Below are positions 9,014 through 56,538 of a stretch of DNA of 56,894 nt, piece after piece; within the stretch, counting starts at the first letter, position 1, and the number at the start of each line of letters is the position of its first letter. The notes beneath the pieces were generated by a model, which saw only the letters and a list, made by a program, of their open reading frames with translations, ran no database searches and was not told where the DNA came from. The stretch is from NCBI GenBank assembly GCA_964619725.1, contig CAZUFC010000048.1, positions 1-56,894 on the forward strand. Reading direction: 5' to 3'. The DNA is from an uncultured bacterium. Its GTDB lineage: Bacteria > CSSED10-310 > CAZUFC01. The position numbers and the translations under genes are program-made.

Positions 9014-10468
9014 TCAGGGGAAATGAACATGATCTTCCGGCAATCCCTCATCCACTTCTGCAGTATCTGCCGCTGATGTATCTTTCTCTCCATAAGGGAG
9101 ATGAACTCTGTCCAGATTCGAGAACAACATAAATCGATTCAGAAAAGCCAGTAAAATTGAACCAGTCGGTCCATTCCTTTGCTTTGAGATGATTAATTCG
9201 GCTTTTCCCTCCGAAGGTTCATCCTGCGATCCTACTTTAATCGATTGAATGTTGTAGACCTCCGGGCGATACAGAAAAAGCACCAGGTCCGCATCCTGCT
9301 CTATAGCGCCCGATTCTCGCAGGTCCGAAAGTTGCGGGCGCTTGTCGATTCGTTTTTCAACTTCACGGCTGAGCTGGGAAAGAGCGATGACCGGGATTTC
9401 CAGTTCCTTCGCCATCGCTTTCAAGGAGCGGGATATCTCCGATATTTCCTGTTGACGATTGTCTTGACGACGCTCTATACGCATCAGTTGCAGATAATCG
9501 ACGAAAAGGACTTTTATATCGTAGACGGATTTCAATATTCTCGCCCTGGCCCTTAATTGCGAAGGATTCAAAGCGGGCGTATCGTCAATATATATTGAAG
9601 CGTTTCCCAGGATCGATGCCGCCTGAGTCATTCTACCCCACTCATTGCTGTTGACGTACCCGGTACGGACCTTCTGGGCATCGACCTGAGCTTCCATGCA
9701 GAGCAGCCTGGTAACGAGAGATTCCTTCGACATTTCCAGGCTGAAAAAGCCGACGGGAGTCTGCTTTTCTACGGCGACATACAAGGCCATGTTAAGCGCC
9801 AGCGACGTTTTACCCATGGCCGGACGAGCCGCCAATATTATCAGCTCACCTTTGTGCAGGCCGGAGGTCATCTGATCCAATTTAACGTAACCCGTCGGTA
9901 CCCCCGTTATCAACTCCTTCCGGTTATATAGCGTCTCAAGCTCCTTGAAAGTATCAAAAACCAGCTTGGATATCGGTTGCGCCCGCTGAGAACTCAACCT
10001 CTCCTCCAATCCCAACAGACTGTGCTCCGCTTCGCTCAGAATCTTCTCTACGTTGTCACTGTCTTCATAACTGCGGCTCAGCAACGCATCGGCTTCCATA
10101 ATGATCTTACGTAAAATAGCCTTCTCCCGCACGATCCTGGAATGACTCTCGATATTCGCCGATGTCGGAACAGCATCCAGAAGAGAAGCTATGAAAGCAG
10201 CGCCGCCCGCATTATCAAGCTGCTCTTTCTTCTTCAAAACGTCTATCAAGCTGATAAGATCGATCGCCTTCTCGCGCTCATACAACTCGCAGCATTCTTG
10301 AAATATTATGCGATGCTTTTCCGAAAAAAAATCCTCCTCCGTTATGTAATCCATCGCCACATTAATGGCTTCAGGTCTCAACAATACAGCCCCTAAAACC
10401 GCACGCTCGGTATCCGGACTGCTTGGAAGTTTTTTTTCGTAAGATTTATCAGCAGATTCCCGTTTCAT
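9014..10468 (-). CDS. dnaB: Replicative DNA helicase
   Basis: AARPAMGKT, FSLEM, VDYLQLM, LSQLSR, DLRESGAIEQDAD, KQRNGPTG; no intein. Confidence 0.97.
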   Translation of the reverse strand: MKRESADKSYEKKLPSSPDTERAVLGAVLLRPEAINVAMDYITEEDFFSEKHRIIFQECCELYEREKAIDLISLIDVLKKKEQLDNAGGAAFIASLLDAVPTSANIESHSRIVREKAILRKIIMEADALLSRSYEDSDNVEKILSEAEHSLLGLEERLSSQRAQPISKLVFDTFKELETLYNRKELITGVPTGYVKLDQMTSGLHKGELIILAARPAMGKTSLALNMALYVAVEKQTPVGFFSLEMSKESLVTRLLCMEAQVDAQKVRTGYVNSNEWGRMTQAASILGNASIYIDDTPALNPSQLRARARILKSVYDIKVLFVDYLQLMRIERRQDNRQQEISEISRSLKAMAKELEIPVIALSQLSREVEKRIDKRPQLSDLRESGAIEQDADLVLFLYRPEVYNIQSIKVGSQDEPSEGKAELIISKQRNGPTGSILLAFLNRFMLFSNLDRVHLPYGEKDTSAADTAEVDEGLPEDHVHFP

Positions 10469-43405: not shown

Positions 43406-44128
43406 ATGAAAGTCGTCGTCGTCATGCCGGCTTACAACGCCGGTCCTACCCTTCTGAAAACTTACCAGGCCATTCCACACGATCATGTCGATGAAATCAT
43501 TCTTGTAGACGATTTCAGCCAGGACAATACCGTCTTACTTGCCTCGCAATTGGACATCAAAGTCATCGAACATCCTGAAAACAGAGGATACGGCGGCAAT
43601 CAAAAAACTTGCTACGATACCGCTCTGAAAGACGGAGCGGATATTATCATTATGCTTCACCCCGATTACCAATATGATCCCTCAATTATTCCACAGATGG
43701 TCGAACCCATCGCCTCTGACAAAACAGATGCCGTTTTCGCCTCACGCTTTCTGGGAAATCCTCTTAACGGCGGCATGCCTCGATATAAATATTTCTCCAA
43801 TAAAATCCTTACATGCCTGCAGAATCTGGCGCAAAACACTTCTTTTTCCGAATTTCATACCGGGTACAGAGCTTTCAGCCGCCGGTTGCTCGAAGATATA
43901 CCCTATCATAAAAATTCAGACGATTTTGTTTTCGATAATGAAATAATTTTTCAAATGCTCGTCCGTAAAGCCCGCATAATGGAATTACCCGTCGAAACTC
44001 GTTATGAAAAAGATTCTTCAACTGTTTCGCTCAAAGGCAGCATCAAATATGGAATCGGCGTATTACGTACAATTTTTAAATATCTGCTTCATAAATGGAA
44101 AATCAAACGCTTTTCTTTATTCGAATGA
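43406..44128 (+). CDS. Glycosyltransferase family 2 (DPM-synthase-like)
   Basis: VVMPAYN, LVDDFSQD, NRGYGGNQK, HPDYQY, EFHTGYRAF. Confidence 0.92.
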   Translation: MKVVVVMPAYNAGPTLLKTYQAIPHDHVDEIILVDDFSQDNTVLLASQLDIKVIEHPENRGYGGNQKTCYDTALKDGADIIIMLHPDYQYDPSIIPQMVEPIASDKTDAVFASRFLGNPLNGGMPRYKYFSNKILTCLQNLAQNTSFSEFHTGYRAFSRRLLEDIPYHKNSDDFVFDNEIIFQMLVRKARIMELPVETRYEKDSSTVSLKGSIKYGIGVLRTIFKYLLHKWKIKRFSLFE

Positions 44129-44153
44129 AGTTAAACCTGAAAGGAAAAAATCA

Positions 44154-46142
44154 ATGAACGCTTACTCCAGCAAATCCACAAATAAATCATCCTTCCCGAA
44201 TTCTCCGAGTTCCTTTCTTTCCCTTGCTGCCCTTTCTTCATTCCTCTGCAGCTTTCTGCTTTCAACCGCTCTCATGCCCTGCCCCTCCGGTGCGACTGCA
44301 GCCGACAACAAAAGCGATATCATCCCACATCTCCGGTCAATGCATGATCAAATACGCGAAATTCAACGCCATTATGTAATTCAGGATGACTCCGCCATTC
44401 AGGAATCCAACCGTGAACTGAATGAACTTCTGGAAAATAGGGAACTCTTGAACGATGATAATACTATGCTGCTTAAGGAAATTGCCGGAAGCGCCGAATA
44501 CTCCGATGAGCTGAGAATCGCTGCCTCCGTTTTTCTGGGTTATCACACGCAGGCGACGGTAAAAGAAAACACGGAGTCGGTCATAAGACCTCTGACCGGA
44601 TTCCTGGCCAAACGTGAGTCGATGGAGCCGTTCGATTTCGTTACCGGACTCTTTAAACTGTATGAAAACTGGTCTCGACAAAAACTAGATGACCTTTCAG
44701 TCCCTTACCTTGTATACCGTTTCGCTGTGCCTTCAGCACAAGATTCCGAAAATGAAAAAGCAATGCTTCAGGAATTTCGCATCGCTGCAACCATCTTTGC
44801 CGGGGCTGTCGGCGACATTCGCGCTGTTACGGCTTTGAAAAGTATGCCTGAAGCAGTCGCTGATCATACTAATGTCTTCGATCCCGTCGGTTTTGCACTC
44901 GGTCTGAGCGCATTAAAATCCCCTGTAACAAGAGATATGCTTTTCGAATCGGCAGCCGTCGGTGGAGTTGAATCGGTTACCGGAATAAAAGCTCTTTATG
45001 CTCTTGGAACCGCAAAAGATGACCGTATTGTAGAATACGCCGCAAAATTTTTTGATCATTTGGAAACCGAATACGATTCCGATGAGACGAAACATGCAAA
45101 AAAAGCGTTCAGAAAACCTGAATCTCCAGTGACTTTGCCCCGCAGCATAACCATCGAAAACCTCATTAATATACTCAGCCGCATGAAAAACGATCGCCTC
45201 ACTCAAGTATTTCTCAGGCTTCTTAAGTCGAAACCCGAACTCATTTCAAAATTACAAGATTACATCGCTTATTCCGGAAACTTCTCTGATCATAAATGGC
45301 TTATGAATGCTATGCTGGAATCAGCCAAGTGGGAATCATTGCGTTTTATGCCTTACTTCATTGATGAACTGGAAACAACCGATGTCGAATACCTGTTGGA
45401 TGCATTGAATCAAGGTTCTGAAATGCAGAAGATGAAAATATTGCAAATTTTCGAACAAATGCCGGCAGACCTTTTAACTCCTCAGATTGAAAACGCAGCC
45501 AAATCCCTGGCAGTCTCCGATCAATCCGAATTGGCGGCCGCCCAGGCAGTCGACTTATTACTCAGATTCCCCGAAACCAATACGCAAGCGTTCCTGAAAA
45601 AACTATCGAGATCAGGTCCACTTGAAAAACCGCGGGCGCTGGCCTTATGGACGCTCTTTAAATTTGCTGATGCTGATGAGAAAATTATTATAGATGCTAT
45701 CGAAAGCGATAATCCTAAATTGAGAATTACAGGAGCGGATACGCTGATCCTCCATTCGACCACCATGGATAAAAGATTAACAGGATTGAAAGGGGAAGAA
45801 TGGAAAAGTATGCTCAAAGCGCTGCACCGGATGCTTCTTCAGGAAACGGATATTCATATCGCTGAGAGGATGCTGGAAGCCGCCTGGCGACATCGGCCAG
45901 GCAGAGTATTCACTCCGGATTTCAATTATTCGGAAGAAGAAATTGAATTTCAGGAGCAAATCGCCCAGCGATTTATATATCCTCAGAAATGGCCTGAATC
46001 TGTTCGGCTTCACCTGACGACTTTTCTCAAACTGCTGAAAACCGAAAAGGCCAAATCTCTCCTGACGCAAATGAAAAATTCCGACCCGTCTGAAAAGGTC
46101 AGAGATCGAGCCGCTCTGCTTCTAAGGATGTGGTCCAGATGA
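44154..46142 (+). CDS. Secreted HEAT-repeat-like helical protein
   Basis: Signal-peptide-like segment ending ATA-AD; HEAT-like units (ALYALG, D.NPKLRITGA, DPSEKVRDRAA); start set at ATG 44154 after AAAGGA. Confidence 0.7.
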   Translation: MNAYSSKSTNKSSFPNSPSSFLSLAALSSFLCSFLLSTALMPCPSGATAADNKSDIIPHLRSMHDQIREIQRHYVIQDDSAIQESNRELNELLENRELLNDDNTMLLKEIAGSAEYSDELRIAASVFLGYHTQATVKENTESVIRPLTGFLAKRESMEPFDFVTGLFKLYENWSRQKLDDLSVPYLVYRFAVPSAQDSENEKAMLQEFRIAATIFAGAVGDIRAVTALKSMPEAVADHTNVFDPVGFALGLSALKSPVTRDMLFESAAVGGVESVTGIKALYALGTAKDDRIVEYAAKFFDHLETEYDSDETKHAKKAFRKPESPVTLPRSITIENLINILSRMKNDRLTQVFLRLLKSKPELISKLQDYIAYSGNFSDHKWLMNAMLESAKWESLRFMPYFIDELETTDVEYLLDALNQGSEMQKMKILQIFEQMPADLLTPQIENAAKSLAVSDQSELAAAQAVDLLLRFPETNTQAFLKKLSRSGPLEKPRALALWTLFKFADADEKIIIDAIESDNPKLRITGADTLILHSTTMDKRLTGLKGEEWKSMLKALHRMLLQETDIHIAERMLEAAWRHRPGRVFTPDFNYSEEEIEFQEQIAQRFIYPQKWPESVRLHLTTFLKLLKTEKAKSLLTQMKNSDPSEKVRDRAALLLRMWSR

Positions 46143-46225: not shown

Positions 46226-46399
46226 CTAATTCGTTTTCTCTGATTCTAATCCCTTGCTCACCAGGAATGAAAAATTCTTCTCCACATTCTCTTTTAGTAT
46301 CACCCCTAAACCCACTAAGGCCAAAAATATCTGCTTTCTTTTCACAAGAATCAGGGTGGCTAAAACCATAATGAGAAACCAATAAAGTTTTTTAAACAT
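46226..46399 (-). CDS. Small membrane protein with phasin-like C-terminal helix (57 aa)
   Basis: Manual translation MFKKLYWFLIMVLATLILVKRKQIFLALVGLGVILKENVEKNFSFLVSKGLESEKTN; GGGAGG RBS 7 nt upstream. Confidence 0.7.
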   Translation of the reverse strand: MFKKLYWFLIMVLATLILVKRKQIFLALVGLGVILKENVEKNFSFLVSKGLESEKTN

Positions 46400-46501: not shown

Positions 46502-46660
46502 TTAAAAAATCGTATAAATCAACGGCGCAACAGCGGATTGTTCCGTCAGAAGAATAATTATGCTGAAGACGAGCATTATAATGATAATGGGAGCAAGCCA
46601 CCATTTTTTCGTTTCTTTCAGGAACATAAAATATTCTTTTAATATGCTGGATTTTTTCAT
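46502..46660 (-). CDS. DUF5989/SxtK-like small membrane protein (52 aa)
   Basis: MKKSSILKEYFMFLKETKKWWLAPIIIIMLVFSIIILLTEQSAVAPLIYTIF; KKWWLAP and SAVAPLIYTIF signatures; GAGG RBS; TTGACA-N18-TAATCT at 46699-46728. Confidence 0.88.
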   Translation of the reverse strand: MKKSSILKEYFMFLKETKKWWLAPIIIIMLVFSIIILLTEQSAVAPLIYTIF

Positions 46661-46806: not shown

Positions 46807-48825
46807 TTAGTCATTGAGCAATTCTTTCATCAATTTCGTAATTTCCGTCTGGAAAGGTTCAGTAATTTTTTTGGGCGTTTTCCGGTCCATATGGAGCAGC
46901 CCCATGGACTGGATACCCGGCTGCTGCCGGTACCAATCAAAAACTGATTCCCAGACTATTCCGCACATCAGCGGATATTCTCTGAAGGATTCTTTAAAAG
47001 CATTGAAAGCATCTTTGAATAATGCCAGTTGAGTTTCTTCCAGGGTGCCGTGTTTATAACGATAATCCTTTTTTTGGGGATTCCTCAACAGCCAGAACTT
47101 ACCTGATGTCGTAGGGGATGACCAGAACCCGAAAGCGGTGATTAAATGCGGTTTATCAGGATGATATTTCATGGCTTTAACAAGGAATTTCCTGACTCCT
47201 CTGCCTGCAGAAATGCCGTATTTTGCCCCGAAATAAGCGCTCCAGCCCGCAGCATCGCATGAATATTGCGAAAAATCCTTCGCTCCCTGGTCGCCGGCGC
47301 TCGCCGCCTGTACCAAAAGTCTTTTATCGGAATAATTATTTCTGTAATCAGATATCATTCGTTCCAGATATTCCTTTTTGCCGTAGGGCTTGCGCTTACC
47401 CCCCAAGTCGGCGCCCAGATTCCAGAACAGAACGGATGGTCTGTTGCGATCTCTGAAAATCATCTCACGCCACATCTGAATATCGATCCGCCTTTCTCTC
47501 TGGGCCTCGAAATGCGGAGATCGATGTTTGTAAAGCGGAATTTCTTCCATTACAGCCAATCCCAGGCTGTCAGTGAAAAAATAAGTGAGAGGGTGATTAG
47601 GATAATAGCCCGTTCTTATGAAATTGGCGTTGAATGTCTGTATGACTCTCAGGTCATGATGAATTTGTTCAGGGGCGCCCGTTCGACCGCTCTCCGGCCA
47701 TTCCTCATGCCTTAACACGCCGAACAGCCTTATTGGAATATCGTTCAAAAGTAACCGTCCCGTCTTGTCCGTCCTTACGATCCTTATCCCTGATTGCGCC
47801 TGACGCCGGTCTTCCACTTTTCCATTGACGATAATGGTCAATTCCACGAAGTATAAATGGGGATGTCCGGGCGACCATAACCTGGGGTTCTTTATGAGAA
47901 GGTCTGAACAAAAAACGACGATGCCTTCCGATTCTGTTTCGGGCACCTGGAAATTCTGAACTGCAAAATCTACTGATTCACCCTTATGACCGTTTGATAT
48001 TGTCGTTGACGCATCAATCTTACCCGTTTCCGCTTCGTAAACATTCCATCCCGCTACAATATCACCCGGATTTACCCTGGAATCCAATCCCGCAATCACA
48101 CACTCAGCTCTGAATCCGCTTCCGTCCCATAAAGGCAGCAAATCCAGTCTCTCGATCCGCAGAAAATTCAATTTTTCTATGTAAACGTCGTGAATAATGC
48201 CTGTATAGTTCGTCCATTCGCAACATTCCGAAGGTATAATGTCGTTCCTGGTTCCCCATGGGATATTATCCACCCGCAGAACAAGAAGATTGTCTCCCTT
48301 CCGTAAATCTTCCGGATTCAGGAGAAAGACGAAAGGAGTATATCCGCCCTCATGATATCCCAGCCATTTCTCGTTCAGCCATACATCGCAAATATAATTA
48401 ACGGAAAAAAAGACCAACCTGTATACGCTCCTGTCGTAAGAAACGGGTATCTGAAATCTCTTGCGATAAGCTACGCCGTCTTCATACCGTTCAGGTCCGG
48501 AATCTGCCTCGCAAGCCGGCATCTTATTAACAGAACCCGGTACGCTGCAGACTTCCCAGTGCGAATCGTCATACTCAAATTTATGACATTGGTTAATCTC
48601 CTTTTCCAGTATTTCAAGCGTATCCTTCCCTGGACTCCGTCTGTCCGTAAGACTGAGATCATGATCAGCCGTAAATTTTCTATATTTCCATTCCCCGGAA
48701 AGATCGAATCGATCCTTGCGTTGAAGCTCAAAACTGGGATAAACCGTGCCGTTTTGAAAAGGGACCTGCAATCCGTTTATTTTTTTTAATTCAAATGTAG
48801 GTTTCAAATCCCCGGCCTTCAACAC
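46807..48825 (-). CDS. Glycoside hydrolase family 2-like protein lacking the catalytic glutamates
   Basis: LSGEW, SVNY..DVWLN...GYHEGGYTPF, NYTGIIHDV, GVLRHEE, RT.YYPNHP, RDRNRPSV; NE motif reads AD, nucleophile motif reads ITAFG. Confidence 0.88.
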   Translation of the reverse strand: MLKAGDLKPTFELKKINGLQVPFQNGTVYPSFELQRKDRFDLSGEWKYRKFTADHDLSLTDRRSPGKDTLEILEKEINQCHKFEYDDSHWEVCSVPGSVNKMPACEADSGPERYEDGVAYRKRFQIPVSYDRSVYRLVFFSVNYICDVWLNEKWLGYHEGGYTPFVFLLNPEDLRKGDNLLVLRVDNIPWGTRNDIIPSECCEWTNYTGIIHDVYIEKLNFLRIERLDLLPLWDGSGFRAECVIAGLDSRVNPGDIVAGWNVYEAETGKIDASTTISNGHKGESVDFAVQNFQVPETESEGIVVFCSDLLIKNPRLWSPGHPHLYFVELTIIVNGKVEDRRQAQSGIRIVRTDKTGRLLLNDIPIRLFGVLRHEEWPESGRTGAPEQIHHDLRVIQTFNANFIRTGYYPNHPLTYFFTDSLGLAVMEEIPLYKHRSPHFEAQRERRIDIQMWREMIFRDRNRPSVLFWNLGADLGGKRKPYGKKEYLERMISDYRNNYSDKRLLVQAASAGDQGAKDFSQYSCDAAGWSAYFGAKYGISAGRGVRKFLVKAMKYHPDKPHLITAFGFWSSPTTSGKFWLLRNPQKKDYRYKHGTLEETQLALFKDAFNAFKESFREYPLMCGIVWESVFDWYRQQPGIQSMGLLHMDRKTPKKITEPFQTEITKLMKELLND

Positions 48826-48939
48826 AATGATTCCATCCTCCTTCTTGTCATCTAATCGTTCCGATTTCCCTGGAACGTCAACCTGTGCACAATGTTATTA
48901 TTACGAGGCATTTTAATCAAGCGCCGACTGAAAAGCGAC

Positions 48940-48987
48940 TGACGGGCGTCAAAAAGCGCTTTCCATCGCGGTGATTGACGTCCGTCA
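48940..48987. repeat. 13-bp imperfect inverted repeat after the anti-sigma gene (possible terminator)
   Basis: TGACGGGCGTCAA-N22-TTGACGTCCGTCA. Confidence 0.5.
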
Positions 48988-48991
48988 ATTA

Positions 48992-50140
48992 TCAACGATC
49001 TTCCGTAGTATTCCTTGTCTCTTGTCCGTCGGATTTAGAACGTTTCGGAAATTCAGGTTCTCGCTGTTCAGACGAAAAACGATCCTTTATCTTGATTTCT
49101 ACAGTCTCTGGCTCCGCAACGAAATAGATACGAACGAAAAGGCGCTCCAGGTTTTTGTCAGCTCTATGTTTCTGTGTTTTTTCATCTTGCTCCATCATTA
49201 CGTTCATCCACCCGTCGACGTATTTGGAAAGTCTCGGACTTCCGCTTTCAAGTATCCTGACGGAAAGCAATTTTTCATCGCCGGCCAGATAAATTTCCAT
49301 ATCGACGAACGTATCCTCATTAACAAAATCCGGGAATTCTATTGCTTGAAGCCTGTTAATTAAAGCCGCATCCTGTTTTTCAGCGCCCTTTTTCACTTGT
49401 GAAGCCGTTCTCAACGTCCATGTCGGCGCTTCCTCTTCCTGCGGTTTTTCCATCATCGCATCCATTTCCTTTAAATCAATTTCATCAGAAATACCTCTTC
49501 CCAGCCTCCGTTCATCCACACCGCCGCTGATTTCGTTTGGTCGAGCCGCAGGTTTTTCCGCTGCCTTAAATTCTTCATGATATGAGGCTTCATGGCGGCT
49601 CTTTTTTTCAGACTTAGCGAATTGCTTTCCGTCCATGCGATCTTTCACCCTCTGAACTCCGTTTTCCTCACTGATCTGCCTTCCCTCGTCCTCGCTTTTT
49701 TCTCCGGGCCTTTGTTCTCTGACTCCCGTTTCCTCATTCGTTGAAACTGCCGGAATTGAATTTGTTTCAAATAATGAGTCGTTTCTGTCCGCCATATGAT
49801 AAAATAAAAAAGCCGTAGTTATGACCAGCATGACTACCGCAGCCGTCTGAGGCATAACGATGTAATCCAGCCAATTGACTCTTCTGATTTTTTTCCTGCG
49901 CCCTAATTTTCTTTTTTCTTCCATCAAACGCGAAATCGTCGCTTCGGTAAAATTCTTCGGCGGTTCCTGAGATTCAGCCTCCATCAATAAATTGCGCGTC
50001 GCTTCCAATGCCTTAAATTCTCTACGGCATTCCTCACACTCGTCTATGTGAATTAAAAACTTCTTCCTCCGGCGCTGGTTTATTCTGTCATCCAGAAACT
50101 CATTCATGTATCGACGCGCCCAAAGGCAGTCTTTTTTCAT
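48992..50140 (-). CDS. Zinc-finger (zf-HC2) membrane anti-sigma factor
   Basis: C...HIDECEEC (HxxxCxxC), single TM, charged linker; ATGA overlap with the sigma gene. Confidence 0.85.
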   Translation of the reverse strand: MKKDCLWARRYMNEFLDDRINQRRRKKFLIHIDECEECRREFKALEATRNLLMEAESQEPPKNFTEATISRLMEEKRKLGRRKKIRRVNWLDYIVMPQTAAVVMLVITTAFLFYHMADRNDSLFETNSIPAVSTNEETGVREQRPGEKSEDEGRQISEENGVQRVKDRMDGKQFAKSEKKSRHEASYHEEFKAAEKPAARPNEISGGVDERRLGRGISDEIDLKEMDAMMEKPQEEEAPTWTLRTASQVKKGAEKQDAALINRLQAIEFPDFVNEDTFVDMEIYLAGDEKLLSVRILESGSPRLSKYVDGWMNVMMEQDEKTQKHRADKNLERLFVRIYFVAEPETVEIKIKDRFSSEQREPEFPKRSKSDGQETRNTTEDR

Positions 50141-50802
50141 AAAAAATCCCTCAACTTATCTTTTAACAATGATCGCCCCCGGTTTATCCTCGATTTTACC
50201 GTGCCTAATCCCACTTTCAACGCTTCGCTGATCTCTTCATAAGTCAGCCCGTCAATGTCCCTCAAAACAACCGCCAAGCGAAATTCCACAGGCAATTCAC
50301 TCAAGGCTCTTTTTATCCCTTCCTGCAATTGCACGGATTCCGCCATTCGATCAGGATGCGGCTGCTCAGAAGATAATTTTTCAATCGGAGACAGCCTATC
50401 TTCCTCGTCGTTCTCCAAAGGCACCTGTAATTTGCGTTTGCGTCTTTTCCATTTATCGAGCCTGTTCAAACAACGATTTACGGTGACTCTGTAAATCCAT
50501 GTCCTTAAACTCGATTTCTCCTTAAACGAATTGATGGATGTGTATACCGCCAGAAAAACCTCCTGACTCAAATCATAAGCCTCTTCTCTGTCGCTCAATA
50601 TTCTCAACGCCAGATTGTAAACATTCCTCCGGTACATCGATACGAACTCTCTGAAAGCGCTCTCCTCTCCGTACTTCAACCGGGAGATTAAAGCCTTCTC
50701 TTCTTGGCCGATTTTCCTGTTTCCGATTCTCATCTTACCGTTTTTAACATAGTCTATGCCTTCTGTGAAGTAAAGAACCGGACCTTCCTGCAAGGGAAGC
50801 AT
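50137..50802 (-). CDS. ECF sigma factor (RpoE/SigW-like)
   Basis: AYDLSQEVF, TWIYRVTVN, LRDIDGLTYEEI, GTVKSRINRGR; ATG 50802 after AAGGAGG. Confidence 0.94.
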   Translation of the reverse strand: MLPLQEGPVLYFTEGIDYVKNGKMRIGNRKIGQEEKALISRLKYGEESAFREFVSMYRRNVYNLALRILSDREEAYDLSQEVFLAVYTSINSFKEKSSLRTWIYRVTVNRCLNRLDKWKRRKRKLQVPLENDEEDRLSPIEKLSSEQPHPDRMAESVQLQEGIKRALSELPVEFRLAVVLRDIDGLTYEEISEALKVGLGTVKSRINRGRSLLKDKLRDFL

Positions 50803-50831
50803 AGTTCGCTCCTCCTTCATTTCCATAATAA

Positions 50832-50858
50832 TTGACAGATTCTTTTGACGAATGTTCC
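50832..50858 (-). promoter_or_regulatory. ECF-type autoregulatory promoter
   Basis: GGAAC-N17-GTCAA directly upstream of the ECF gene. Confidence 0.68.
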
Positions 50859-53223: not shown

Positions 53224-56200
53224 TTACAGACGAACTTGTCGTGATCCGGTGCAAGTTTGACGGCCAAGGACGATAACGACAGTCAGAATCGCAAGCAGGA
53301 GCAATTCACCTTTCATGTCTGACGAAGGAATGACGGGCGGCTCAGGTGAAGCTGAGGGCGTGGGGGAAGGAGTTGCCGTGGCTTGCGGAATCAGGACCAG
53401 GCGGTTTCTCTGAGGACCGACGGCAAAGTCTGCAACGGTGATCAAGCCGTTTTCATCGGCAATAGCGATGCCGTCGTCCACCAGAGTATTATCGCTTACG
53501 GTCCTGTTTTCCCAGGCGTATTGAGCGCCGGGAGTAACGATGAAGTTTTGGAGTCGGCGCGGGGTTACGTCGACCGTTTGAACTATTCCCGTACCGCAAT
53601 CGTTCGTATAGGGATCGGCGCTGATGGAACAGAGAGCAATTCTCCATAAATTCGGATCATCAATTGGCGGTCCGTCCCAGGGGTCCCATGAAGAAGACCA
53701 GCGCAATGTATGATTGAACTTTCCTGGTTCAGCAGGCGGCAAGTCCAGATCATTATCCGCGTTGCTGAGCCCCGGAATCGTTTCACTTTTTATCGCTTGA
53801 AAATTGCTGAAGGGCGCTGCCCCGGCGATTGTATGCGGTAACCCGTTAAATCCCTGCCAGAAATGATCGGCTGATGTGACGGCGCCGCCCCACGTGCGTT
53901 TTCCGGCATTGAACGCGCCATAGGCCGGATATCCCTGAGTAGGCCATTCAATGACGTAATCGTTCATGCCGTGAGCCACGCCAAAGGGGACCATTTCATC
54001 GCCTGATCTTTCCTGAATGTTATCCTGATGATTCTGCCAGTCCCATACGCCCATGCCGTCATATTTTTTCAAATGGTCAGCCCAGTCTCCCGGTCCGTCA
54101 ATTTCGACAGGCAGATTCAATTCCGGTGCGCCCCATTTCCATGCGACGTCGACCCTCCAGTCTATGCCGCCGCCGTCCCCGCATGTGCTGTAATTCGTCA
54201 TAGGCTCGCTCGCATAAGCCGCAGCGAAAACATTCGGGTAACGCAACGACAGGGCAAGGGTCCCGCTGCCGCCCATGGAATGCCCGAAAACATAAAGTCG
54301 CTCGGGGTCCGGTATCGCTCCCGGAGGGTTCCTCAATAAATCATACAGAATACGCAATATGCGTTGCTCGGTGTAATTTACGATCACATCACACTCTTCC
54401 ACGATATTGTTTAATCGATAATCGTGATCGCCGGCGAAACCGAAATACCAAGTTTCGCTTACGTCGTAGAGATAAACGGCATAAGTACACCAGTACTGGT
54501 CCGGCAGGTCCAGTACCGGGCCGTAAGAGTTGCCGCCCCATCCATGCAGATTCAAGAATAGCGGAACCGATGGAGGAACGCTTCCTCCGCATAAACTTTC
54601 CCTGGGTTCATATATGACATAATCGTATGCATATTGTATTGACTCCGAGACAGCCGGATCGGCAGGATCGAGTCCGAAATAACCGTTAGCGGCATGAGGC
54701 GCATGAAAAGTGGGATTCCATTGTCTTAAATCCATATACTGCAGGTAAAGATGTCCTCCTTCCCCAATATCCATATCGACTTCCACCGGTAAAGGATCGT
54801 TTACGGCTTCCATTACCGGACCGATACTGTTTTCATTCGTAAAATCCGTCACGTTCTCCTGGTCATACGGACTGACGCTCGTAACCGCATAATACGCGGT
54901 TCCGCTTTCCTCACCGCCGAAATCCTCCATGCACAACGTCCAGACAAGCAATCCCTCACCCACCGCCAGTTGTTCGCCGCCGTCCTCAATGACAAAACGC
55001 TCTAAATAACGCTCTTCCCATACGCCGCTGCCGGTGTTGTACCGGTTCGCGTAAAAATTTCCCGATCCCTCGCTGACCTCATACAATAACGTCGCCTGAT
55101 CCAGGTTGGAAGCGTCTATCGATTCCTCATACCGGTAGATACGATAACTCTCACCAGTCAACTCGCTTAACTCCATCCACGTTATAAACGTCTGACCGCT
55201 TCGATGCACCGCAGTTAAGTCCACTGGTTGATCCGGCATTGGCGCCGGCGTTGCGGTAGCCGCCGTCGAATTAATGATGACTGCAGCATCGTAAGGACCC
55301 AGATTCACCGAATCCGCCTCCTCATACGTCAAAGTTCCTGTGGGAATGCCATCTCCGGGAACAGGTCCTCCGCCTGAGGCTGAAACCAGATAACTCTCTT
55401 GCGGCAATACATATTCACCCGGGTCTGCTGAAGTAGGGTTCACAAGGACAAGTCCGTTATCAAAATTCCGTATATATATTCCCGGGTCCGGCGCCCATAA
55501 TTCCGATATGTCCCCGGGCAGATAGCTGTAAGCGCCGATTGGAATATCATACTCAGGATACCATTCCAGTCCCAATCCGCTGAACATGGCCAGATAACAT
55601 GCAGCGCCCTTGCACAACAAATGACAGCCCGTATAAAACATACGGGTATCATAGTCATCCGCAGCCATATAATTCTGACATATGATCACCTTGCCCTCAT
55701 GCTGCAAATCAAGAATACGATTCATCTGAAGCTGCCAGTCGGAAAAATCGAATGGCGACTGTACTCCCCACATCGCGAATTGCTCAACCATTACTCCGTC
55801 CGTCAGTGAATAATCTATCTGTGATACCGTCGTTACAAGCCCCGCTGCATTGGGAATCAGATAAAAGGGGTCAAGCTGATTCGCAAATTCCGAATGTACG
55901 TGTGCTAAAAATCCGTTTAAACTGGGGTCCCAGAAATCGAATTGATTCGTTCCGTCAGGCCACCACTGAGACGGACTCGTATTCCATGGATAGGAACAGG
56001 AATCGGCAAACACTCCATCTGACAAGTTCAAACTCCGCCTGCGCAAAGACTCATTAACGAACCAGTCGCGATAATCATCCACTTCCGGGTCTAATACCCA
56101 CCAGTTCCAATCAGTCTGTAATATGCGCTGATCAGGATGCGGACTGGTCGGATGCGTCAAAAAGAACTCCGGATAATTCTGATCAAGATCGTCATAAGGG

Positions 56201-56538
56201 TCCGGCAACCACTGGTAACCCTCCGGATGCGTAAATTCTCCTATTCCGAATCCCAGCAGATAATCCAGAAGTATAAAGTCAGGATTAACAGACCTGATGG
56301 GATCGAGTATGTCCCGGGTTAACTTCTGGCATCCCACAAGATGTGTTGCGGCAAATTCATGCTGCTCATCCGTCATTCCCGGCAACAACTGATCGGAAAA
56401 ATGACGAATGTCCGATGTCGTGTCCGGCCAGGGCCGCCCCGCATTGGTTGTCGAAAATGTCATGAATAATACAATGATCCACGCAACTCTTTTCATAATC
56501 CTATCCTTTTGCAATGGTGAAATCCTTGCGACGGTCAT
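53224..56538 (-). CDS. Secreted multidomain protein: putative glycoside hydrolase (GHL15-like) + alpha/beta hydrolase + IPTL-CTERM-like tail
   Basis: Signal peptide; DGVFAD, DGVMVE, GLVLVNP; LHGWGG and GHSMGG; T/P/S linkers; C-terminal IPSS...G-hydrophobic-R tail. Confidence 0.72.
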   Translation of the reverse strand: MTVARISPLQKDRIMKRVAWIIVLFMTFSTTNAGRPWPDTTSDIRHFSDQLLPGMTDEQHEFAATHLVGCQKLTRDILDPIRSVNPDFILLDYLLGFGIGEFTHPEGYQWLPDPYDDLDQNYPEFFLTHPTSPHPDQRILQTDWNWWVLDPEVDDYRDWFVNESLRRRSLNLSDGVFADSCSYPWNTSPSQWWPDGTNQFDFWDPSLNGFLAHVHSEFANQLDPFYLIPNAAGLVTTVSQIDYSLTDGVMVEQFAMWGVQSPFDFSDWQLQMNRILDLQHEGKVIICQNYMAADDYDTRMFYTGCHLLCKGAACYLAMFSGLGLEWYPEYDIPIGAYSYLPGDISELWAPDPGIYIRNFDNGLVLVNPTSADPGEYVLPQESYLVSASGGGPVPGDGIPTGTLTYEEADSVNLGPYDAAVIINSTAATATPAPMPDQPVDLTAVHRSGQTFITWMELSELTGESYRIYRYEESIDASNLDQATLLYEVSEGSGNFYANRYNTGSGVWEERYLERFVIEDGGEQLAVGEGLLVWTLCMEDFGGEESGTAYYAVTSVSPYDQENVTDFTNENSIGPVMEAVNDPLPVEVDMDIGEGGHLYLQYMDLRQWNPTFHAPHAANGYFGLDPADPAVSESIQYAYDYVIYEPRESLCGGSVPPSVPLFLNLHGWGGNSYGPVLDLPDQYWCTYAVYLYDVSETWYFGFAGDHDYRLNNIVEECDVIVNYTEQRILRILYDLLRNPPGAIPDPERLYVFGHSMGGSGTLALSLRYPNVFAAAYASEPMTNYSTCGDGGGIDWRVDVAWKWGAPELNLPVEIDGPGDWADHLKKYDGMGVWDWQNHQDNIQERSGDEMVPFGVAHGMNDYVIEWPTQGYPAYGAFNAGKRTWGGAVTSADHFWQGFNGLPHTIAGAAPFSNFQAIKSETIPGLSNADNDLDLPPAEPGKFNHTLRWSSSWDPWDGPPIDDPNLWRIALCSISADPYTNDCGTGIVQTVDVTPRRLQNFIVTPGAQYAWENRTVSDNTLVDDGIAIADENGLITVADFAVGPQRNRLVLIPQATATPSPTPSASPEPPVIPSSDMKGELLLLAILTVVIVLGRQTCTGSRQVRL

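Follow-up and report, generated by a model that had tools for sequence, protein, structure and literature searches.

The question whether a complete member of glycoside hydrolase family 2 (GH2) can be retained without the residues on which the chemistry of its family depends, and what such a protein may then do, is raised by a gene on contig CAZUFC010000048.1 of an uncultured bacterium, of which the whole stretch of 56,894 nucleotides (the window) was analysed. This gene (46807..48825, minus strand) consists of an uninterrupted open reading frame (ORF) of 672 codons (2019 nucleotides) and encodes P0001, a 672-amino-acid protein with a GH2 fold that lacks the catalytic machinery. Its sequence, relatives and predicted structure indicate that P0001 is probably, although by no means certainly, a cytoplasmic GH2 pseudoenzyme that has been maintained by selection and whose part would be binding instead of cleavage.

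Domain architecture and catalytic positions of P0001

An earlier, sequence-only reading of the window had described an uninterrupted GH2 protein of 672 amino acids at this position, which was confirmed. Indeed, three GH2 domains were matched above their Pfam gathering scores (PF02837, 50.8 bits; PF00703, 41.9 bits; PF02836, 73.9 bits), and this three-domain architecture, together with significant similarity to 122 GH2 sequences of the PDB (E <= 0.001), places P0001 in the family by homology. None of the GH2 equivalogs of NCBIfam, comprising LacZ4-type beta-glucuronidase, LacZ, GusA, GalA/GalB and other named enzymes, was matched at its cut-off, all 11 matches scoring far lower (best match NF050095, BetGlucuronLacZ4; 139 versus 950 bits). 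The AlphaFold2 model of P0001 reached a predicted local distance difference test (pLDDT) value of 91.0 and a predicted template modelling (pTM) score of 0.93, only residues 573-593 falling below a pLDDT of 50. The best Foldseek matches of this model were GH2 beta-glucuronidases and beta-galacturonidases (6ncy_A; E 1.4e-45, template modelling (TM) scores 0.69/0.79). The solved enzymes of these two kinds (6ncy/6ncz, 6mvg, 5uj6, 8dhe and 6ncw) resemble P0001 in fold and domain order (TM 0.67-0.82), although they are active and only 18-22% identical to it in structural alignment.

Alignment of P0001 with chain 6ncy_A, from a hybrid glucuronidase/galacturonidase (HMMER, E 1.4e-33), placed WNLGAD opposite a segment ending in WSVGNE, ITAFG opposite VTEFG, and RTGYYP opposite RLAHYP. 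The three altered motifs that had been read from the sequence (conserved as W-x-x-x-N-E, T-E-F/Y-G and R-T-x-H-Y-P) thus hold against both this structure and the homologues, and so does the residue equivalence, A472-D473 lying under the N-E pair and A564 under the nucleophile glutamate of 6ncy. A472-D473 (GCC GAC; 47407..47412, minus strand, hence read from 47412 to 47407) is situated at the end of barrel strand 4 and occupies the place of the acid/base motif, N-E in 119/119 homologues. A564 (GCT; 47134..47136, minus strand, read from 47136 to 47134), at the end of barrel strand 7, replaces a nucleophile glutamate that is likewise present in 119/119 homologues. The codon positions given earlier were correct, as was the spacing of 91 residues between positions 473 and 564; the catalytic residues of Escherichia coli GusA are numbered E413 and E504. 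The claim that both catalytic glutamates are replaced needs a qualification: E473D and E564A are both real, but Asp473 keeps a carboxylate, and only the nucleophile position is left without one.

Four further positions, all on the minus strand, deviate from a residue that is invariant in the homologues. These are Y407 (TAT; 47605..47607), which lies in RTGYYPNHP and is histidine elsewhere; E203 (GAA; 48217..48219), in a loop of the N-terminal domain, where the homologues have aspartate; K535 (AAA; 47221..47223), in the loop after barrel strand 6, three base changes away from the TTY codons of the conserved phenylalanine; and E626 (GAA; 46948..46950), at the end of barrel strand 8, where tryptophan is otherwise found. 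The homologues in question are the best 120 of 1138 matches, minus P0001 itself, and all 119 of them keep D203, H407, N472, E473, E564 and W626, whereas P0001 has E, Y, A, D, A and E. Four of the altered family-invariant positions (D203E, T529S, F535K and W626E) had not been listed in the sequence-only reading. Across ten subfamily-conserved pocket positions, the relatives read DHNETYFEWW and P0001 reads EYADSYKAWE, so that eight out of ten are changed. A second search yielded 96 additional proteins, of which 95 keep the nucleophile. Since 119/119 homologues are intact at the catalytic positions and 95/96 at the nucleophile, the deviation of the catalytic motifs of P0001 is far beyond chance.

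Two features of an active GH2 enzyme are therefore missing from P0001, namely the acid/base N-E at the end of strand 4 (residues 465-472 in the model, the strand ending at the replaced pair) and the nucleophile glutamate of strand 7 (residues 560-565 in the model). By this comparison, the double-displacement hydrolysis of glycosides that its relatives perform is not expected of P0001. Substrate-assisted catalysis, as in GH18/20/84, was considered as well and rejected, since a D-E pair is lacking where strand 4 ends. The sequence-only reading had also proposed a natural glycosynthase. Engineered glycosynthases carry alanine, serine or glycine instead of the nucleophile glutamate and need activated donors; P0001 resembles them in that a barrel of the retaining clan GH-A carries alanine in place of the nucleophile. 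However, their acid/base and sugar pocket are left entirely intact, whereas in P0001 N472-E473 has become A-D and no fewer than five other pocket residues are changed (D203E, H407Y, T529S, F535K and W626E), eight out of ten pocket positions being affected altogether. As a glycosynthase requires an acid/base, a -1 subsite and a small residue in the place of the nucleophile, and only the last of these is found (A564), this proposal is unsupported for P0001.

The former catalytic face also differs in charge. Summed over eight catalytic-face loops, with windows chosen by the analyst, the net charge is +7 in P0001 versus -3 to -9 in seven relatives. This shift arises from E564A, F535K and stretches rich in lysine and arginine after strands 4 and 7. 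It suggests that the basic face of P0001 may accommodate an anionic ligand or partner.

Relatives of P0001 and signs of constraint

P0001 stands alone in the collections searched. A word-indexed search returned P0001 itself (100%) and, as the next match, proteins of 39-41% identity; an exhaustive phmmer search of 1.84 billion representatives retrieved no orthologue (best non-self match 40%), and none of the 43 loci found by a scan of genome contigs was orthologous (best 38% identity). The nearest relatives are 36-41% identical over 97-100% of the protein (E ~1e-130 to 1e-139). DnaB encoded in the window likewise has a best match of only 56% identity, a protein named after candidate division CSSED10-310, followed by matches of about 53%. 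This indicates that the isolation of P0001 is not special to this gene, the organism itself being an orphan, and that no orthologue was found because the source organism belongs to a deep orphan lineage.

The GH2 subfamily to which P0001 belongs is uncharacterised. It comprises proteins of Ignavibacteriota and Bacteroidota sorted by the type IX secretion system (T9SS), and cytoplasmic proteins of 650-680 amino acids from Paenibacillus and Bacillus; examples from the subfamily are P0003, P0041 and the loci L006, L009 and L012. P0001 shares with it the three domains, full-length homology and 68 of the 84 columns in which the 119 homologues do not vary. Unlike P0001, many members are secreted, with a signal peptide and the T9SS domain PF18962, and the members keep N-E, the nucleophile glutamate, H407, D203 and W626 (119/119). 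Neither a signal peptide nor a T9SS domain was found in P0001, the N-terminus of which aligns to the mature start of its secreted homologues, in agreement with the lack of a signal peptide stated earlier. A Shine-Dalgarno sequence (AAGGAGG; 48837..48843, minus strand) was read 11 nucleotides 5' of the GTG start at 48825. An N-terminal extension or signal peptide lost by a frameshift was ruled out, as an in-frame TAA occurs about 25 codons 5' of this GTG and the sequence offers no earlier start codon. The codon usage of the gene ranks 13th among the 37 genes of the window and is thus typical, although the bias of this genome is weak and the test has low power. From its strong Shine-Dalgarno sequence and codon-usage rank, the gene looks expressed and native.

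Catalytically intact sisters of P0001 were identified. P0122 (668 amino acids), with all catalytic residues intact, grouped with P0001 in quick trees (Shimodaira-Hasegawa-like approximate likelihood ratio test support of 94 and 99, the former tree carrying a long-branch warning). A search with P0122 added P0392 (56% identity to P0122, intact) and P0393 (50%), both hypothetical proteins with a common locus-tag prefix of one Deltaproteobacteria metagenome-assembled genome. A mixture-model tree resolved the four proteins as (P0001,(P0122,(P0392,P0393))), with support of 96/92 and path lengths from the clade base of 1.26 for P0001 and 1.17, 1.16 and 1.45 for the other three. The three relatives are like P0001 in lacking a T9SS domain and in their length of about 650-670 amino acids, but are only 35-39% identical to it, and P0122 and P0392 differ from it in keeping every catalytic and pocket residue. 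P0001 and intact members of the clade further share two insertions that flank catalytic strands. One, of four residues after strand 4, is common to P0001 and P0122. The other, of about 20 amino acids after strand 7 (residues 573-593, core FWLLRNPQKKDYRYKHG; 47047..47109, minus strand), has low model confidence and occurs also in the intact P0122 and P0392; its conserved core in P0001 and P0122, FWLxRNPxxKDxRxxHG, was absent from all other proteins collected in the analysis and from the 43 loci. These two rare shared insertions make the grouping of P0001 with P0122 credible.

Within this clade, P0393 too has lost its nucleophile, with alanine instead of glutamate (T-A-F-G, as in P0001), while N-E and His407 are kept; three further pocket residues (Y531, W568 and W626) are changed, and the 20-residue insertion is deleted. 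Its branch has about twice the length found for the intact paralogue P0392 (0.53 versus 0.24). Because the intact P0122 and P0392 separate P0001 and P0393 on the tree, the nucleophile losses, as reconstructed from it, are independent, and they differ in detail. P0392 and P0393 appear to form a pair of active and inactive paralogues, which could assemble into mixed oligomers.

Maintenance of P0001 was distinguished from decay by means of the 84 family-invariant columns, of which P0001 deviates at 16. In a leave-one-out comparison within the 119 homologues, each member deviates at no more than three, although this comparison is unfair to P0001 as a distant lineage. A fair control was provided by 13 catalytically intact lineages at 35-41% identity, which deviate at 4-14 of the same columns (P0122 at nine, P0134, P0145 and P0142 at 13, and P0158 at 14); none of these deviations concerns positions 407, 472, 473 or 564. 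The match to the family consensus, by conservation class, amounts to 81/80/55/30/15% for P0001 versus 89/82/53/33/18% for its intact sister P0122. The deviations of P0001 are concentrated at the C-terminal ends of the barrel strands, which in the triose-phosphate isomerase barrels of glycosidases form the active-site face: 7 of the 17 invariant columns deviate there versus 9 of the 67 elsewhere (Fisher p = 0.016). Several replacements are multi-base (AAY to GCC, TGG to GAA and TTY to AAA; two to three base changes each), indicating that these changes are old and that the pocket was remodelled over a long time. As a rough estimate, free drift that changed 7 of 17 active-site positions would have brought many stops into 672 codons. 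Tajima relative-rate tests of P0001 against P0122 gave p >= 0.14 with 8 of 10 outgroups, so that P0001 has evolved about as fast as its active relatives, without marked acceleration. The earlier suggestion of selection rather than decay thus finds support, at the level of sequence, in the intact ORF and the conservation pattern (68/84 columns, branch length and clustered losses).

Genomic surroundings

P0001 is preceded, directly upstream and on the same strand, by a gene pair for an extracytoplasmic function (ECF) sigma factor and its anti-sigma factor, as had been recognised from the sequence. The sigma factor is SigW/RpoE-like (50137..50826, minus strand) and lies upstream of the anti-sigma gene. 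The start of its ORF is probably too early, as GAAGGAGG (AGGAGG) lies at a typical distance before an ATG at residue 9 (50802). The anti-sigma factor (48992..50140, minus strand) consists of an N-terminal zf-HC2 domain, a single hydrophobic segment that spans the membrane, and a long extracytoplasmic part that matches no family. Just after its stop, in the 166-nucleotide gap before P0001, a hairpin (48938..48989, minus strand) may act as a weak terminator or attenuator; this intergenic stretch as a whole folded no better than shuffles (z -0.55). A motif GGAA[AC]-N16-17-GTCA, resembling an ECF-type promoter, occurs upstream of both the sigma gene (50833..50858, minus strand) and P0001 (48940..48964, minus strand). 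Having been defined post hoc, it is not significant (5 occurrences in the window versus 2.2 expected, with as many in 6 out of 100 shuffles), and a shared ECF promoter of the two genes was not upheld. Similarly, a scan of the window for sigma-70 promoters and terminators returned no more sites than shuffled sequence. What links P0001 functionally to the ECF pair is position only.

Downstream of P0001, on the same strand, two small genes follow, each with its own ribosome-binding site, namely one for a 52-amino-acid DUF5989 protein (46502..46660; Pfam E 2.6e-21) and a 57-amino-acid hydrophobic ORF without family (46226..46399). A terminator-like hairpin (46103..46080, minus strand) is located after them. 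Convergent with this GH2-like operon runs an ORF of 712 amino acids (44004..46142, plus strand) without Pfam or NCBIfam match, the listed start of which overlaps the preceding gene, of glycosyltransferase family 2, by about 125 nucleotides; its true start may lie further downstream. Farther away, a 1104-amino-acid protein (53224..56538, minus strand) combines GHL15, a hypothetical glycosyl hydrolase family, with a weak esterase-like match, and sits in the sole part of the window with a guanine plus cytosine content above 0.50. The region 9014..10468 (minus strand), like the window as a whole, represents chromosomal DNA from a diderm that branches deeply and has been poorly sampled. The genes of the window include those for GluRS, IspD/E/F, DnaB, L9, Pth, MlaDEF and RseP, the organism being considered diderm because of the Mla genes.

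The neighbourhoods of active homologues were examined at four of the 43 loci (L006, L009, L012 and L001). In the three Bacillales loci, which are operons for sugar or polysaccharide utilisation, genes for sugar permeases of the ATP-binding cassette (ABC) type occur directly 5' of the GH2 gene, with GH30, GH5 or GH16 adjacent, and a LacI-type regulator is also present in two of them. In the Caldilineaceae locus, the GH2 gene is accompanied by GH17-like proteins and a TIR-SH3 protein. These glycoside hydrolase neighbours hint at an ancestral substrate related to beta-glucan. No ABC sugar permease, LacI regulator or GH30, GH5 or GH16 gene was found in the surroundings of P0001 in the window.

Possible roles of a GH2 fold without catalysis

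Taken together, the catalytic residues of P0001 are lost, while the fold and the conserved non-catalytic residues appear constrained, which is the pattern of a pseudoenzyme. P0001 has kept the three-domain fold, consisting of a jelly-roll, an immunoglobulin-like sandwich and a (beta/alpha)8 barrel, and has lost the clan GH-A catalytic apparatus by the changes of the acid/base N-E into A-D and of the nucleophile glutamate into alanine, most of the polar and aromatic residues lining its sugar (-1) pocket having been altered too. This loss would have taken place on the lineage of P0001 itself, after its split from the catalytically intact sisters. The protein may then act by binding instead of cleavage. 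With the change of the catalytic face from acidic to basic, the target would most likely be anionic, either a ligand or a partner; a sugar phosphate, a nucleotide sugar, the acidic head group of a lipid, an acidic glycan, an acidic protein or a nucleic acid are candidates. Another possibility is that P0001 regulates some other protein or forms a non-catalytic subunit of it.

Such a fate has parallels among pseudoenzymes derived from glycosidases. The GH18 chitinase-like lectins belong to these, but keep their sugar-binding residues, whereas P0001 has altered most of its pocket. Other reported examples are the fungal GH3-like NGS1 (PMC12954445), heparanase 2 (PMC12406646) and the GH28 pseudo-polygalacturonases of beetles (PMC6549527). 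Like P0001, such pseudoenzymes retain the fold with catalytic residues replaced, theirs serving binding, sensing or regulation; unlike P0001, they belong to other glycoside hydrolase families and are mostly eukaryotic.

Several observations weigh against a maintained pseudoenzyme. P0001 has the most invariant-column deviations of any sequence tested (16 versus at most 14), and it slightly exceeds P0122 in unique changes in 9 of the 10 relative-rate comparisons, with one p of 0.019 and one of 0.051. The enrichment at strand ends reaches only p = 0.016, with a window definition chosen by the analyst, and the charge argument depends in the same way on analyst-chosen loop windows and on seven comparison sequences. 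In the collections searched, no orthologue closer than about 40% identity was available on which a ratio of nonsynonymous to synonymous changes (dN/dS) could rest, and the inactivation could fall anywhere on a branch whose length is about 1.26 substitutions per site. Finally, a carboxylate persists at position 473 and W626E adds another, so that some catalysis is possible.

The last point bears on the idea that P0001 is a re-wired enzyme, namely a phosphorylase, a transglycosylase, a natural glycosynthase, or an enzyme with a new carboxylate pair (D473 with E626 or E203). In one variant, it would perform inverting chemistry on alpha-sugar-1-phosphates, D473 being its only acid, while the phosphate would be held by the new basic residues and given room by Ala564. 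An aspartate carboxylate at the acid/base position and the one brought by W626E to the end of strand 8 are compatible with this, as are the independent origin of the glutamate-to-alanine change twice within the clade, P0393 keeping N-E, and the basic residues gained by the face (+7 versus -3 to -9), including F535K and the stretches rich in lysine and arginine. Replacement of the nucleophile by alanine is, moreover, the classic glycosynthase change. However, the histidine and aspartate of these pocket positions hold the sugar in solved GH2 enzymes, and with eight out of ten pocket positions changed, including the asparagine before the acid/base, a donor sugar would need a new binding mode. Also, the basic 20-residue loop occurs in the intact sisters and is of low confidence in the model, and genes for a sugar kinase, a transporter or a phosphomutase are not found nearby in the window. 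In favour of such chemistry, GH130 phosphorylases are reported to become hydrolases when their basic phosphate-binding residues are swapped for carboxylates (PMC4599007), which makes the reverse path conceivable. On balance, a re-wired enzyme is considered unlikely. In an equally doubtful proposal, the GH2 barrel has turned into a non-hydrolase, which is either a cytoplasmic sensor or regulator whose rebuilt, basic site binds some anionic sugar derivative or other anionic partner, possibly feeding the adjacent ECF module for envelope stress, or a natural glycosynthase or inverting phosphorylase. If true, the twofold glutamate-to-alanine change within a clade of four members would mark a repeatable evolutionary route out of GH2 hydrolysis.

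P0001 could also be a non-functional relic, inactivated and useless but not yet broken by a stop or frameshift. Its 16 deviations out of 84 invariant columns, its slight excess of unique changes over P0122, its status as a singleton in the collections searched and its location outside any sugar-utilisation locus are all in line with decay. Against this stand the intact ORF of 2019 nucleotides with its strong ribosome-binding site, a conservation profile and branch length that resemble those of the active sister, and the concentration of the losses at the active-site face instead of an even spread. In addition, the substitutions of two to three bases imply a long time, over which a frame of 672 codons free of constraint would be expected to break, and a well-preserved fold is in keeping with the AlphaFold confidence of 91. 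A relic thus seems improbable. As a sub-case of a maintained, binding P0001, the protein may be an accessory of the adjacent ECF sigma/anti-sigma module, for instance a cytoplasmic sensor of a sugar or envelope precursor. Its gene immediately follows those of the sigma and anti-sigma factors on one strand, the motif GGAA[AC]-N16-17-GTCA precedes both the sigma gene and P0001, and a glycosidase-derived sensor has a precedent. Yet the motif was defined after both sites had been seen and is not significant in the window, a 166-nucleotide gap with a hairpin separates the anti-sigma gene from P0001, and the part of the anti-sigma factor that presumably senses is extracytoplasmic, while a signal peptide is absent from P0001. 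This more specific role is given a very low probability. A maintained pseudoenzyme, which may bind an anionic target, accords best with these observations as a whole.

Degenerate GH2-like modules were encountered outside this clade as well. Ten cluster representatives of about 1500 amino acids (P0144, P0170, P0173, P0177, P0180, P0187, P0189, P0197, P0203 and P0222, none of them in the window) consist of F5/8-type-C and GH84 (NAGidase) domains, followed by a C-terminal GH2-like module of the subfamily of P0001. In these modules, the acid/base and nucleophile positions are mostly replaced (S-E/G, T-R/E, H-N/Q, T-H/A and others). The fusions are monophyletic (support 100) and form a clade separate from P0001. 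The GH2 fold behind GH84 looks like a fold reused as a non-catalytic accessory module, judging from these replacements. The fusions and P0393 show that non-catalytic GH2 modules are not unique to the window. Full-text literature searches retrieved no paper on a natural GH2 pseudoenzyme. P0001, P0393 and the GH84 fusions together indicate that non-catalytic GH2 folds are a recurring, so far undescribed bacterial class.

GH2 is among the best-studied glycosidase families, with LacZ and GusA as members, and automatic annotation calls every member an enzyme. P0001, as its sequence shows, is a full-length member for which the mechanism of the family is out of reach, although its conservation is that of a working protein. 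Genes of this kind should therefore not be counted as glycosidases in metagenome surveys. Furthermore, the intact P0122 and P0392 versus the dead P0001 and P0393 offer a compact test system for the re-use of a barrel or for a natural glycosynthase or phosphorylase.

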